Positions 10,431 through 13,862 of a stretch of 22,158 bases of DNA are shown here, one piece after another (the first letter of the stretch is position 1; each line of letters begins with the position of its first letter). Source of the stretch: Candidatus Heimdallarchaeota archaeon (lineage in GTDB: Archaea > Asgardarchaeota > Heimdallarchaeia > Heimdallarchaeales > Heimdallarchaeaceae); the NCBI GenBank assembly GCA_016840095.1, contig JAEOSZ010000033.1:1-22158 (forward strand), given 5' to 3'. Both the position numbers and the translations under genes were made by a program. Under the pieces are notes generated by a model, which was not told the DNA's origin, searched no databases, and was given only the letters and a program-made list of their open reading frames with translations.

Positions 10431-10625
10431 TAGCTATCCAAAAACCCTCTAGAAAAACTATGGAGGATTTTACTAACTGAACGTTTAAATAATTCGGATT
10501 GAATATGCATTAATTACTAGTTGCTAAAGTTACAGTTAGCGAAAACATTAAATTAGAAATAACTATATTAGAATTGTTCAAACTTTGCAATTCCAGCTCG
10601 AACATTTGAATAAAAAGGTGAAGAA

Positions 10626-11636
10626 ATGTCCTTCTATGAGTTCCGTAAGCGTATTTTGGAAGAGAAACAAAAAAGAGAAAAACAGCAAGGCAAACAAGAG
10701 CGGACAGGGGGAGTAAATCAAGAAACTGTTGTAGGGAGAAACAAGTTTAGTGTTGCATTGTTAGGTCTGGAAAGAGCTGGTAAAACATCCTTAGTTAAGA
10801 AACTGCTTAAACAAGAAGATATCGTAGTTAGACCAACATATGGAGTTAATCTAGAAAACTACCAATATAGAGATCTAAATTTCACTTGTTTTGATTTAGG
10901 TGGTCATCAACCATTCAGATTAAGTTTGTGGAAGAAATTTATTGAAAGAGCTGACTCAGTCATATATCTAGTTGATTCATCTGACCATGTTAGATTTGAA
11001 GAATCAAAACAAACTTTCTGGCATTATATTAATTTTGCAAAGCAAAGTGCTCCAGTACTATTTCTGGCTAACAAAAGTGATTTACCCAATTCTAAAGAAC
11101 TATCTGAAATTAATTCAGCATTTGAGTTAGACAAGTTCCTAAGAAATCTCAGACCATTCAACATAAAGAAAGTTTCAGCATTAACTGGTCAAGGTGTCTA
11201 TGAGGCTTGGGATTGGGTTGTAGATGTTCTTTGTGGAGCTCAACAATGGAAAGTAAAAATCGGAGCAGCTGTATTATCCGATATTGATGGTAATATTATA
11301 TCTGAAGCAATTTTCGGTAAGCCTTCTGATCAAGCTGAAATTGCCAATGATTTCAAGAAACTTAAAGAGTTAACAAGAATGTTTGCTATTGAATCAAAAG
11401 AAAGCATACAATCTGTTAAATTGGAGAGTTTGTTTAAGAAACATGTTAGTCATGTTAAAAGAGGAGCTTACTGCTTGTCTGTAATGATTGATCCAATTGA
11501 TCCTGTTACAAGAGCTCAGCAAATCCAGCTTAGGATTCTTGAGAACTTCAGTCGTAATCCAACAGAAGTTAAAAGGAGTCTCAGCGAAGTTTTTGAGAGT
11601 AAGTTTCCATTAGAAGTTGAAGGAGGAATCCGATAA
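10626..11636 (+). CDS. Arf/Sar-family small GTPase fused to a C-terminal longin/roadblock-like domain
   Basis: G1 GLERAGKT, G2 PTYG, G3 DLGGH, Arf-family R...LW, G4 ANKSD, G5 VSALTG, W..W helix. C-terminal ~125 aa with AAVLSDIDGNII...LSVMID pattern. AAGGTGA SD upstream. Confidence 0.9.
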   Translation: MSFYEFRKRILEEKQKREKQQGKQERTGGVNQETVVGRNKFSVALLGLERAGKTSLVKKLLKQEDIVVRPTYGVNLENYQYRDLNFTCFDLGGHQPFRLSLWKKFIERADSVIYLVDSSDHVRFEESKQTFWHYINFAKQSAPVLFLANKSDLPNSKELSEINSAFELDKFLRNLRPFNIKKVSALTGQGVYEAWDWVVDVLCGAQQWKVKIGAAVLSDIDGNIISEAIFGKPSDQAEIANDFKKLKELTRMFAIESKESIQSVKLESLFKKHVSHVKRGAYCLSVMIDPIDPVTRAQQIQLRILENFSRNPTEVKRSLSEVFESKFPLEVEGGIR

Positions 11637-12632
11637 TTGAGTAATTATCTTTCTTTTATCCGTGATAAGTTGATTTCTTCTCAAGAGCAGAAGATACCCC
11701 AACTTGTTATTTTGGGATTGGAAGGATCTGGAAAATCCAGTGTTGTCAGTCGTTTGTTATATGGAACTGTTTCAGATGGACAACCTCCGCAACTAACTTG
11801 TTATATTAATGTTACTTATGGTAAATCTGTTATCACTGTTCTTGAAGCAGATGAAGAAACTGCAAGAGAAAGCCCATACTTTCAAGACATCTTAGGAAAA
11901 ATAGATGGAATTGTTTTTGTCATCGATGCACAATCCGTACGTCATATCGAGGCATCTTTCGAATATATCTTTAGTTTATTTGATAAGATTCCACAAACTA
12001 CATCCATTTTGTTCTTAGCTAATAAAACCGATTTACCTGATGCAGTACCTTTCCCAGATTTATTGCAGGATCCAGCTTTTCAAGTCATTATGGATGATAT
12101 CAATCGTTCAGTTTCTATTTATCCTGTTAGTATAAAGACTGGTGAAAATTTCTATACAGCTTTCGACTGGATAATATCCAGGATGACTGGAAGAACACCA
12201 TTACGAGAAGAAGTCAATCCAAAACGAGTTATTATTCTTCAAGAGGGTGGAGTTCCAGCGTTTGATCACACATTTGACAAATCAATAGAGGAACATGATA
12301 GTACTTTACTAGGTGGTTTAATTAGTGCTTTGAATATTATGGCTTCAACCATCTTTGAAAGTGAATCCGTCATGGATGTTGTCAAGCTTGGTTTGGTCAA
12401 AATGGTAATTAGAAAAATGGGAGGTTGGAGTATCGTTTTATTCGTTGATCGAGATGATAGTGAATCTAAAGCACAATCTCTAGCTGAAGAGATTCTTAAT
12501 GCATTCATTGAAGATAAGGAACGTGATCCAACGAAAGAAATGCCTAGACAAGTAAAATACGAGTTCTTGTCAAAAATTCCTGAAATAGCTATATTGTTAG
12601 ATCAGGTACCAATGAAAGAAGAAGAATATTGA
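11637..12632 (+). CDS. Arf-like GTPase with degenerate switch regions fused to a C-terminal longin domain
   Basis: TTG start right after the previous stop, with GGAGG SD. G1 GLEGSGKS, G4 ANKTD, G5 VSIKTG, FDWI; G3 position reads EADEE. C-terminus IILQEGGVPAF...DSTLLGGLISALNIMA...WSIVLFVD is typical of longin domains. Confidence 0.85.
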   Translation: MSNYLSFIRDKLISSQEQKIPQLVILGLEGSGKSSVVSRLLYGTVSDGQPPQLTCYINVTYGKSVITVLEADEETARESPYFQDILGKIDGIVFVIDAQSVRHIEASFEYIFSLFDKIPQTTSILFLANKTDLPDAVPFPDLLQDPAFQVIMDDINRSVSIYPVSIKTGENFYTAFDWIISRMTGRTPLREEVNPKRVIILQEGGVPAFDHTFDKSIEEHDSTLLGGLISALNIMASTIFESESVMDVVKLGLVKMVIRKMGGWSIVLFVDRDDSESKAQSLAEEILNAFIEDKERDPTKEMPRQVKYEFLSKIPEIAILLDQVPMKEEEY

Positions 12633-12641
12633 GGAGAAAAA

Positions 12642-13412
12642 ATGATAAATCCAAATGTAACAAAAGAGCCAGTTTTGGTTTTCAGTATCTTCAAAGATTA
12701 TGGACCAGATATTCTATTTAATAACTCCACACTTGAAGAAAATGTAGCTCTTACTCTAGTTATGCAAGGAATGACATTAGTAGAGATGGATAAGGGGTCA
12801 ATTGGAAGAGTTGACGGAACTAAGAATCCAAAAATGTTAGGACCAATCCCAGTTCCAGAAAATGAACACTTAAAAGCTATTGCAATTCCTTTTGAAACAG
12901 AGATTACATCCTCAACCGACGAGAGAATTACAGCTGCAGGATACAGATTATGTGTAGCCTATTTCATCTTTGACGGTAGCGCAGTTAGAGATGTTCTAGA
13001 TAGCTATGGGTTAATTGAGCCATATTTTACTTTAATTGGAAGAAGTCTGCACAAAGAGTCAGAAATCAATCCTACATCAATTAAGCAGCTCTATGTAAGG
13101 ATGATAGATATGTTCTCAGGAAAGATACCTAGAATTTTCGCAGTTAATGCAGATAATTCCCTCAAAGAAATGATTGGTAAAAGACTAGAATATGCTGACA
13201 CATATTTGCTATGTGACATAAACAAGAATGTAATGTATATCTTGTTATACAACCCATCAATGGATGTCTGGAGAAGAAGAGATATCTTCAAAGTTGCTTC
13301 TGAACTTAATTCAAGCATGTTCAGAAGTTCGATGAGAATTAAAACTATAGAAGATGTCAAAGAGATGGTAAGAATTCTTGAGATCTTGAATATAGAAATT
13401 GCTCCTGTTTAA
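12642..13412 (+). CDS. Hypothetical protein: N-terminal longin/uDENN-like domain plus C-terminal gelsolin-like repeat
   Basis: FSIFKDYGP start motif (F-x-x-F...GP as in uDENN/NPRL2-type longins). C-terminal YLLCDINKNVMYILL...RRRDIFKVASELN...IKTIE resembles a gelsolin repeat. GAGGAG SD. ORF is confident, domain calls are tentative. Confidence 0.55.
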   Translation: MINPNVTKEPVLVFSIFKDYGPDILFNNSTLEENVALTLVMQGMTLVEMDKGSIGRVDGTKNPKMLGPIPVPENEHLKAIAIPFETEITSSTDERITAAGYRLCVAYFIFDGSAVRDVLDSYGLIEPYFTLIGRSLHKESEINPTSIKQLYVRMIDMFSGKIPRIFAVNADNSLKEMIGKRLEYADTYLLCDINKNVMYILLYNPSMDVWRRRDIFKVASELNSSMFRSSMRIKTIEDVKEMVRILEILNIEIAPV

Positions 13413-13445
13413 TCCTTTCTTTTTCTTATTTTTAGCTATTTTTGA
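13413..13445 (+). terminator. Putative oligo-T terminator after the GTPase operon
   Basis: TCCTTTCTTTTTCTTATTTTT immediately after the stop, between convergent genes. Confidence 0.5.
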
Positions 13446-13448
13446 ATT

Positions 13449-13862
13449 CTAATTTGGTACATAACTCATCATAACTAAATCTTCTCGAGTGTGCCATCCT
13501 GCTTTTTTGTAAAATTCGATTACACCTTCATTATCAACTTCAATAAATAAATGAACTTTCACTATTTTCTTCTCAGTAAATCGTTTATGTAATTCTTGCA
13601 TAATTTCATTTCCTAGTCCTAATCTTTGATATTCAGGGTCAATTGCTAAATGATGTACATAACCTCTTCTTCCATCAAAAGCCCCCATCACAACTGCAAC
13701 AATTTTTTCATCTTTTTTACCAACAATAAACAGGTCTTGACTATGGTTTACTGCACGTTGAACTTCTTCTTTGGTGTCAGATTTACCTAATGATAGACCT
13801 GTTTTTTTCCAAATCTCATATACTTCAGGATACATTTCAATAGTGAATTGTTCAATTTTCAT
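13449..13862 (-). CDS. GNAT family N-acetyltransferase (YpeA-like)
   Basis: FDGRRGYVHHLAIDPEYQRLGLG acetyl-CoA motif A and N..VIEFYKKAGW motif B. Confidence 0.92.
   Translation of the reverse strand: MKIEQFTIEMYPEVYEIWKKTGLSLGKSDTKEEVQRAVNHSQDLFIVGKKDEKIVAVVMGAFDGRRGYVHHLAIDPEYQRLGLGNEIMQELHKRFTEKKIVKVHLFIEVDNEGVIEFYKKAGWHTREDLVMMSYVPN

Follow-up and report, generated by a model that had tools for sequence, protein, structure and literature searches.

The window analysed here, a stretch of 22,158 nucleotides (nt) of contig JAEOSZ010000033.1 from a Candidatus Heimdallarchaeota archaeon (assembly of 3.44 Mb in 165 contigs), includes three adjacent genes which we call p1, p2 and p3. They specify an Arf/Sar1-like GTPase, a degenerate sister GTPase and a protein combining a longin with a gelsolin-like domain. 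On balance, and with a probability of roughly 55%, we consider that they form a single operon encoding a small-GTPase switch together with its own regulator. By analogy with eukaryotic longin complexes, p3 is probably the dedicated regulator, acting as an arginine-finger GTPase-activating protein (GAP). A parallel arrangement built on Rag-type GTPases was found in another family.

The three open reading frames (ORFs) lie on the same strand, separated by 0 and 9 nt (Table 1). Each is preceded by a Shine-Dalgarno-type motif: GGTGA 4 nt 5′ of the p1 ATG, GGAGG 10 nt 5′ of the p2 TTG and GAGGAG 5 nt 5′ of the p3 ATG. An initial reading of the sequence, the original prediction, had described this layout, including a T-rich tail after p3, and all of it is seen in the ORF list and by direct reading. 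In what follows, f1 is the family to which the window belongs, Heimdallarchaeaceae by the source names of the closest proteins, and f7 a family in a different order of the same class. AGGTGA before p1 is kept in the f1 orthologues sampled.

The p1 protein matches Pfam Arf (PF00025) with 133 bits (E 1e-38; cut-off 22.3). The runner-up families SRPRB, Roc, Ras and Gtr1_RagA are far lower, the score on Gtr1_RagA (PF04670) being 25.1 bits for a cut-off of 22. In the PDB, the closest sequences belong to Arf1/Arl3 and to Asgard Arf GTPases (E 1e-26 to 7e-29). All G motifs are kept, including G1 GL(E/D)xAGKT(S/T), G4 NKxD and G5 SA(L/K)(T/S)G, in a 29-sequence alignment of p1/p2 orthologues and paralogues (hereafter the motif table); by these motifs the first gene is indeed the active GTPase that it had been taken for. 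Switch I is Arf-like, PT(Y/F)GVN. Switch II reads DLGGH in the 12 p1 orthologues tabulated, one being DAGGH. The Arf-type catalytic Gln of DxGGQ is thus absent from p1 in the motif table and His is present instead, as in Sar1 and SR-beta. p1 therefore belongs to the Arf family, with a catalytic residue of the Sar1 type.

Residues M1, S2, F3 and R9 of p1 are invariant across f1 and f7, within a conserved MSF...R...I/L start, and p1 may begin with a short membrane-binding helix. The original prediction had placed an amphipathic segment at the N-terminus of both GTPases. This segment is only weakly supported: the hydrophobic moments range from 0.47 to 0.73 in p1 orthologues and from as low as 0.31 to 0.79 in p2 orthologues, for an internal 90th percentile of 0.52, and are lower for p2 of f1 than for p1.

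The second protein, p2, also carries an Arf-type G domain (57.5 bits and E 1.6e-15 on Pfam Arf, cut-off 22.3). It scores 19.1 bits on Gtr1_RagA, under the cut-off of 22, so that both G domains are Arf rather than Rag, in agreement with the first reading. p1 and p2 can be aligned across 302 residues with 25% identity (BLASTP, E 3e-18). The alignment spans the C-terminal ~130 amino acids (aa), as it should if the two are paralogues with the same layout. The degeneracy attributed to p2 is evident in the motif table. It keeps the P-loop GLEGSGKS and NKTD, but the G2 Thr and the G3 DxxG are gone. The G3 site reads E[AV]DEE in f1 and D[LI]G[KNQE] in f7, without the second Gly and the catalytic residue. 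G4 is NKxD in f1 and partly lost in f7, and G5 is degenerate, with S(I/V/A)x or T/N-I-x ahead of (T/S)G. Catalytic motifs are lost, yet p2 equals p1 in conservation between genera (60-79% identity) and its ratio of nonsynonymous to synonymous substitution rates (dN/dS) is low at 0.05-0.13, a rough value since dS is saturated. Judged from its sequence, p2 therefore fairly deserves the label pseudo-GTPase, that is, a maintained and catalytically dead paralogue. In f1 it probably still binds nucleotide, a prediction made because P-loop and NKxD are kept. A recent tandem duplication as the origin of the p1/p2 pair was considered and rejected: p2 is nearer to a genomic paralogue (27%, E about 2e-25) than to p1 (25%, E 6e-16).

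The C-terminal domain was modelled for p1 with AlphaFold2 (AF2), on aa 204-336, from an alignment of 27 rows that comprises the tails of p1, p2 and paralogues. The resulting model reaches a mean predicted local distance difference test score (pLDDT) of 82 and a predicted template modelling score of 0.79, with strands (b) and helices (a) in the order bb-a-bbb-a-a-a. Its best matches among PDB structures are longins, with Z scores of 12.0 for SYBL1 (2dmw), 11.8 for Sec22 (3egd_C) and 11.6 for VAMP7 (4afi_B), followed by AP sigma and Ykt6 at about 10. Roadblock domains (MglC, the MK-D1 roadblocks, MglB and LAMTOR) score 8-9.5 and cover residues 4-110, whereas the longins cover residues 1-132. For the solved Lokiarchaeal RagA-like GTPase, the tail gives a score of 8.3. 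Foldseek matches include AP sigma, Sec22b, Ykt6, LAMTOR and MglB. Used as a profile against PDB sequences, the tail alignment gave nothing meaningful. The difference between Z 11.5-12 for the VAMP7/Sec22 longins and 8-9.5 for roadblocks is modest because the two folds are closely related; by this model, the tails of p1 and p2 are longins, as had been proposed, and not roadblocks of the true-Rag type. For p2 the longin fold is that predicted by the model it shares with the p1 tail.

p3 has no Pfam or NCBIfam match, and its homologues are all named 'hypothetical' or 'uncharacterized' at source. A profile search retrieved 61 representative clusters from a library of 1.84 billion proteins. The AF2 model is of middling confidence (pLDDT 66) and resolves into two clear halves in the structural search. 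The N-terminal half is closest to a Lokiarchaeal longin (8yqg_B, Z 9.8) and to the Lst4/FNIP longin (4zy8_C, Z 9.7). These are followed by chains of the FLCN-FNIP2 complex (6nzd_H, 9.0), C9orf72-SMCR8 (7o2w_A, 8.8), GATOR1 (8fw5_B, 8.2) and the SEA complex (8adl_S, 7.6). Longins of SNARE, AP and TRAPP proteins rank lower (Z 5.7-7.7).

A study of 2025 described, as the hallmark of the eukaryotic GAP longins FLCN, NPRL2 and SMCR8 and of a class of Asgard longins, a GP motif ahead of longin strand 2 together with a neighbouring arginine finger; C9orf72 has the GP motif as well, and the longins of FNIP2, NPRL3, adaptin, TRAPP and DENND have neither (PMC12290439). In p3 the corresponding D-x-G-P lies between the strands 11-14 and 25-26 of the model. 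D19-x-G21-P22 does not vary in close-family alignments, and almost all of the roughly 57 distant representatives retain it. The family alignment shows no change at D93 and R95 either, and D-x-R is present in all but one distant representative. Two further segments are conserved, G-P-x-P-V-P (67-72), near-invariant across about 60 clusters, and G-x-R (100-102). By predicted fold and GP motif, the N-terminal domain thus qualifies as a 'GAP longin' of the FLCN/NPRL2/SMCR8 type. Arg95 is the candidate arginine finger, an alternative being Arg102 just before the next strand.

The C-terminal half of p3 is gelsolin-like rather than DENN in the structural search. The top Foldseek match is the Thorarchaeota ProGel 7c2f_B (E 8e-4). 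Another chain of the same entry, 7c2f_D, aligns over 86/88 residues (Z 9.3, root-mean-square deviation 2.8, 17% identity). Adseverin follows (Z 8.6), with rows for gelsolin and villin, the Loki and Heimdall 2DGel proteins (Z 7.0-7.9, 20% identity) and the Sec23a gelsolin-like domain (Z 6.8). Both searches thus bear out the original description of p3 as a longin-gelsolin protein. No Pfam Gelsolin (PF00626) match occurs in 38 p3-family members. Within the protein, strong conservation marks the longin half; in the gelsolin-like half only N223, E241 and E176 are well conserved family-wide. Of the possible link to actin that had also been suggested, the gelsolin fold is thus recovered, but the match is by fold only and the link itself is weak. 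A Sec23-style arginine finger in this domain was sought and rejected: R164 is present in 15/31 sequences and R213 in 12/31, and no Arg of the domain is conserved family-wide.

Other searches with p3 returned little. The Pfam scan of the 38 family members and 10 distant relatives gave no longin, Folliculin, NPR2 or Gelsolin model, and profile-profile comparison found no similarity between p3 and the p1/p2 longin tails (probability 0.8%). The ESM Atlas yielded only unnamed Asgard clusters with scores under 0.85; one neighbouring cluster carries NPR2 on 19% of its members and is a lead only. No longer fused form of p3 was found in a collection of 5.8 billion proteins, which is weak evidence.

The triplet is conserved well beyond the window. 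Across 30 genomes of f1, p1, p2 and p3 are 60-96% identical, with dN/dS of about 0.03-0.17 (dN is far below dS, which is saturated). All three genes are under purifying selection, and conservation of this degree with low dN/dS makes it implausible that the features of the triplet are due to chance. Whole-genome searches found p3 in 30/30 and p2 in 29/30 other f1 genomes, and p3 in 12/12 and p2 in 10/12 f7 genomes. Without exception, the f1 loci sampled (five genera) and the f7 loci that hold a p1/p2 pair (11 genomes) retain the order p1-p2-p3, so that the conservation in relatives anticipated by the original prediction extends over two Heimdallarchaeial families. Between f1 and f7 the proteins are only about 38% (p1), 30% (p2) and 39% (p3) identical. 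Neighbouring genes are -11 to +12 nt apart in f1, as against about 90-170 nt in f7.

A second version of the arrangement involves Rag-type GTPases. A 597-aa single chain from a Promethearchaeota metagenome-assembled genome (P0139; NCBI MFX1533204.1) joins a p3-like unit to a Rag-like GTPase. Its longin (4-153), which has GT in place of GP, is followed by a gelsolin-like domain (174-263), a Gtr1/RagA-type GTPase domain (286-473) and a further C-terminal domain. This is the one fusion of its type that was found, and a pattern scan of genome contigs gave no relative. With this protein as probe, matches to a p3-like protein and a Rag-like GTPase were obtained in 22/22 genomes of the family f5. All eight f5 loci examined contain a four-gene array in the order active Rag-like GTPase, degenerate Rag-like GTPase, p3-like protein and Rag-like GTPase. 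Gene 1 encodes the active GTPase with a C-terminal domain and the motifs GLSQAGKTS, DLGGQ and HKTD. Gene 2 encodes the degenerate one, with a GK-D P-loop, no G3 and no NKxD. The f5 GTPases score 115-124 bits on Gtr1_RagA, and the sequence pattern of the Rag-flavour tail points to a helix at its start, which suggests a roadblock. A pair of p3-like and Rag-like genes also occurs in a fourth family (L052). Together, the f5 array and the unit of the window indicate that the arrangement of active GTPase, dead GTPase and longin-gelsolin protein exists in an Arf-longin and a Rag flavour.

Several observations concern the surroundings of these genes in other genomes. In f7, the triplet is followed by a small GTPase gene (173-197 aa) that is absent from the f1 unit (L013:5513-6034; L015, L029, L031, L032, L034, L035); the copy scanned, in L013, is of the Ras/Rab family (Pfam Ras, 2.5e-35). 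A p3-like gene of a further family, f3, has as its next neighbour a protein of 197-200 aa that lacks a G domain (L016:5051-5644, L017:3738-4340). The N-terminus of this protein resembles the p2 longin tail (BLAST 2.6e-4 to 4.7e-4; hidden Markov model 5e-5) and it has a weak match to the Fuz/Mon1/HPS1 longin (E 1.2e-4). In f5, a further p3-like gene invariably precedes the gene for a conserved ~130-aa protein that no Pfam model matches (L022:4919-5335, L023:5160-5558, L026:3910-4305, L027:5299-5688).

The genome of the window itself matches the Arf profile at 42 places. These include four standalone ArfR-type genes of ~175-195 aa and at least five Arf genes of 306-336 aa with C-terminal extensions, one of which (C22) has DLGGK at switch II. 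A near-identical 317-aa Arf-longin paralogue (DLGGH) with the same neighbours lies on two contigs (C62:5856-6704, C90:3194-4045). The two copies may be strain variants or reflect redundant assembly; the contamination estimate for this genome is 7.8%.

The unit is bounded upstream by a BacA-family gene and a spacer, and downstream by a convergent GNAT gene. A good archaeal TATA-box-like word, TTTAAATA (10484-10491), stands in the spacer ~135 nt upstream of the p1 start, and this spacer is the putative promoter of p1. The T-rich tail is likely to be an archaeal terminator.

Table 1. Coordinates of the features discussed (positions in the window, except for the last row).
Feature	Position	Strand	Remarks
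p1 ORF	10626-11636	+	336 aa, ATG start
p1 N-terminal segment MSFYEFRKRILE	10626-10661	+	candidate membrane-binding amphipathic helix
p1 G domain	10737-11225	+	aa 38-200, Pfam Arf; Arf search of the same genome agrees
p1 switch II D90-L-G-G-H94	10893-10907	+	motif table
p1 C-terminal longin	11235-11633	+	aa 204-336, AF2 model
p2 ORF	11637-12632	+	331 aa, TTG start
p2 G domain	11685-12179	+	aa 17-181; Pfam range and motif table
p2 E70-A-D-E-E74 in place of G3 DxxG(Q/H)	11844-11858	+	p1/p2 orthologue alignment
p2 C-terminal longin (predicted)	12189-12629	+	aa 185-331; aligned with p1 tail, BLASTP
p3 ORF	12642-13412	+	256 aa, ATG start
p3 N-terminal longin	12654-13124	+	aa 5-161, structural search
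p3 GP motif D19-Y-G21-P22	12696-12707	+	loop before longin strand 2
p3 Arg95 in D93-E-R95	12924-12926	+	candidate arginine finger
p3 C-terminal gelsolin-like domain	13125-13409	+	aa 162-256; Foldseek and structural search
Intergenic spacer 5′ of p1	10431-10625	+	195 nt, after BacA-family gene, with GGTGA motif
T-rich tail 3′ of p3	13413-13448	+	36 nt, three T5 runs (direct reading)
GNAT acetyltransferase gene	13449-13862	-	convergent to p3; Pfam
f5 four-gene array	L049:1217-4928 (G067:C96)		also L043-L047, L050, L051

How might such a unit work? In the mechanism we propose, p1, with its Arf-family G domain, Sar1-type catalytic His and C-terminal longin, would be the working switch and may bind membrane through its short conserved N-terminus. 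It would pair with p2 via the two longin tails, as a Rag/Gtr pair does via roadblocks. p3 would dock on one or both G domains and insert Arg95 into the nucleotide pocket of p1, speeding up GTP hydrolysis, and its gelsolin-like domain would provide a second contact or the output. The p1-p2 dimer, the binding of p3, its GAP activity and the association with membranes are what we infer from known systems. A complex prediction for p1, p2 and p3 run with alignments reached 0.08 against a mark of 0.32; it gives no verdict and is evidence neither way.

Many longin platforms function in nucleotide exchange and not as GAPs. This is one of several points which weigh against the proposed operon of a switch and its GAP. 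The contacts between the three proteins are drawn from the analogy with Rag, FLCN and GATOR1, from gene order and from one fusion protein, and that Arg95 lies beside the GP motif in space is presumed. The p3 model has a pLDDT of 66, and its fold matches fall at Z 8-10, a range where shared architecture often comes without shared function. Neither Pfam Folliculin (PF11704) nor NPR2 (PF06218) was matched by p3 and 37 relatives at E values up to 1, and the p3 profile found nothing among PDB sequences. With NKxD partly lost from p2 in f7, nucleotide binding by p2 would not be a general property. Moreover, f7 has a second p3 copy with no GTPase neighbour, and the p3-like genes of three other families (f6 and f33 among them) have none either.

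If p3 is not a GAP, it could promote nucleotide exchange on p1 or serve p1 as a passive platform, like Mon1-Ccz1, TRAPP, DENN or Ragulator. The list of folds similar to the p3 longin does include the Mon1-Ccz1, TRAPP and CPLANE longins, at Z 6-7.7, and the protein next to the p3-like gene in f3 is the one with the weak Fuz/Mon1/HPS1 match. We nevertheless think this unlikely, given that the top eukaryotic matches are GAP-type longins (Lst4, the FLCN complex, C9orf72-SMCR8 and GATOR1, Z 8.2-9.7) and that the combination of GP motif and Arg, reported to be specific to GAP longins (PMC12290439), is near-invariant in p3. Another possibility, to which we give equally little credit, is that p3 uses its longin to pair with the tail longin of p2 (or p1), p2 then being the non-catalytic half of the regulator. 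All eukaryotic longin GAPs are pairs of a catalytic and a non-catalytic longin (PMC12290439), and in f3 the neighbour of the p3-like gene is a stand-alone longin resembling the p2 tail, without a G domain. This pairing is at odds with the profile comparison, in which the p3 longin and the p1/p2 longins show no similarity, and with the two-domain layout common to p1 and p2. An active/degenerate pair of shared layout, recurring in two G-domain flavours, is what a Rag-like dimer predicts.

p3 could also lie downstream of the switch, as an effector that responds to the nucleotide state of p1 and relays it to the actin cytoskeleton through its gelsolin-like domain. That domain does match actin-binding Asgard gelsolins (Z 9.3 and 7.0-7.9), but by fold only, with no Pfam Gelsolin in the 38 members, and its three conserved residues stand against a strongly conserved longin half; we regard such a role as very unlikely. 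Least probable of all, in our judgement, is mere co-regulation, with p1 and p2 forming separate homo-oligomers and p3 having an unrelated role. A homotetrameric RagA-like GTPase from Lokiarchaeota is the title of PDB entry 8yl2, and the window's genome has single Arf-longin paralogues with neither a tandem partner nor a p3 neighbour. Co-regulation would, however, have to account for an order kept across two families at 30-40% protein identity with tight spacing, for the recurrence of this order with Rag-type GTPases and for a protein in which a p3-like unit is fused to a GTPase. An operon in which p3 serves as the GAP of an active/dead GTPase pair thus remains the reading that we prefer.

Such an operon has parallels among eukaryotic systems. 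Rag/Gtr GTPases heterodimerise via C-terminal roadblock domains, and both Rags are active. Like these GTPases and their regulators FLCN-FNIP (Lst7-Lst4) and GATOR1 NPRL2-NPRL3, the unit combines a paralogous GTPase pair carrying C-terminal alpha/beta domains of the dimerisation type with a longin that resembles those of FLCN, Lst4 and GATOR1 and has the GP motif and a conserved Arg. In contrast to Rag/Gtr, the G domains are Arf, the tails longin rather than roadblock and one partner is degenerate. p3 consists of one chain of 256 aa, in which a gelsolin-like domain takes the place of the DENN or NPRL2 C-terminal domain, and the unit stands outside the context of an mTOR pathway. SMCR8-C9orf72 (CSW), a longin-pair GAP for Arf1, is similar in that a GAP-type longin with GP motif and conserved Arg goes with an Arf-family GTPase; p3, however, is one chain, without a WDR41-like or second DENN subunit.

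The arginine finger of Sec23 comes from its gelsolin-like domain. The unit recalls the Sar1-Sec23 pair of COPII in the Sar1-type DLGGH of p1 and in the gelsolin-like domain at the end of p3. It differs in the Arf-like switch I of p1 (PTYGVN) and in p3, whose gelsolin-like domain has no conserved Arg and matches that of Sec23a at only Z 6.8, and which has no trunk, barrel, Zn-finger or helical domains. Asgard Sec23-like proteins were reported to lack exactly the gelsolin-like domain (PMC11914678).

Among prokaryotic systems, MglA-MglB is likewise a small GTPase with an adjacent regulator of the roadblock/longin superfamily, and the p1 tail matches the MglB/MglC fold at Z 8.2-9.5. MglB is, however, a stand-alone roadblock dimer without an arginine finger, and MglA has neither a fused C-terminal domain nor a pseudo-GTPase partner. 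Further parallels come from Asgard proteins. An operonic pair of 'Rag-like' GTPase-roadblock proteins from Prometheoarchaeum MK-D1 was predicted to form a Gtr1-Gtr2-like dimer (Tran et al. 2024, PMC10933270). These share with p1 and p2 a longin/roadblock tail, Arf annotation by sequence and an operonic arrangement, and their predicted dimerisation through the tails is like the one that we propose for p1 and p2. Unlike this pair and the Lokiarchaeal RagA-like GTPases (PDB 8yl2, 9m28), the unit has a pseudo-GTPase, longin tails, a switch II His and a third, longin-gelsolin gene. A literature search on the solved Lokiarchaeal Rag-like structures found no paper. With the Asgard ArfR/AArf GTPases (10.1101/2024.02.28.582541; PMC11914678), p1 shares Arf-family membership, a candidate short N-terminal helix and the absence of a Gly2 for myristoylation, and its E values against the Asgard Arf entries 8ouk-8oun are similar to those against eukaryotic Arf1. 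It differs from the standalone ArfRs of its own genome, which measure 175-195 aa and carry DxAGQ at switch II, in its length of 336 aa, its longin tail and its DLGGH.

Parts of this picture are therefore known. Fusions of Asgard GTPases to longin or roadblock domains have been published, as has an operonic pair with predicted dimerisation (PMC10933270; 10.1101/2020.10.19.343400), which makes the module less unprecedented. So have NPRL2-like and FLCN-like Asgard longins (10.1101/2020.10.19.343400; PMC12290439), as well as Asgard gelsolins and ArfR/AArf GTPases (10.1101/2024.02.28.582541; PMC11914678). Longins with the GP motif were reported in Heimdallarchaeia in 2025, in a study of 15 Asgard proteins that left as a question whether their partner is an ArfR or a Rag GTPase and described no gene neighbourhood or gelsolin fusion (PMC12290439); p3 may be among these proteins. 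The longin-gelsolin family, the operon with an active/dead Arf-longin pair and the Rag-type array were not found in the searchable literature.

Asgard archaea have many small GTPases and many longin/roadblock proteins, and which regulator belongs to which GTPase is largely unknown. From the operon, the corresponding Rag-type array and the fusion protein, longins with a GP motif gain specific candidate partners that can be tested with standard biochemical methods. Should p3 prove to be a GAP, the longin mechanism with an arginine finger, as in FLCN, GATOR1 and C9orf72-SMCR8, would predate eukaryotes and would operate on both Arf- and Rag-type switches. The pairing of an active with a dead GTPase and the fusion to a gelsolin-like domain would then be two design features absent from the eukaryotic complexes. 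A broader and quite unlikely idea is that the operon is a surviving archaeal version of the ancestral unit behind FLCN-Rag, GATOR1-Rag and SMCR8/C9orf72-Arf, a single-chain arginine-finger GAP acting on an active/dead dimer, with Arf-longin and (in f5) Rag-roadblock flavours. Were this true, gelsolin modules would have been recruited to the control of Arf/Sar-type GTPases before Sec23 gained one.

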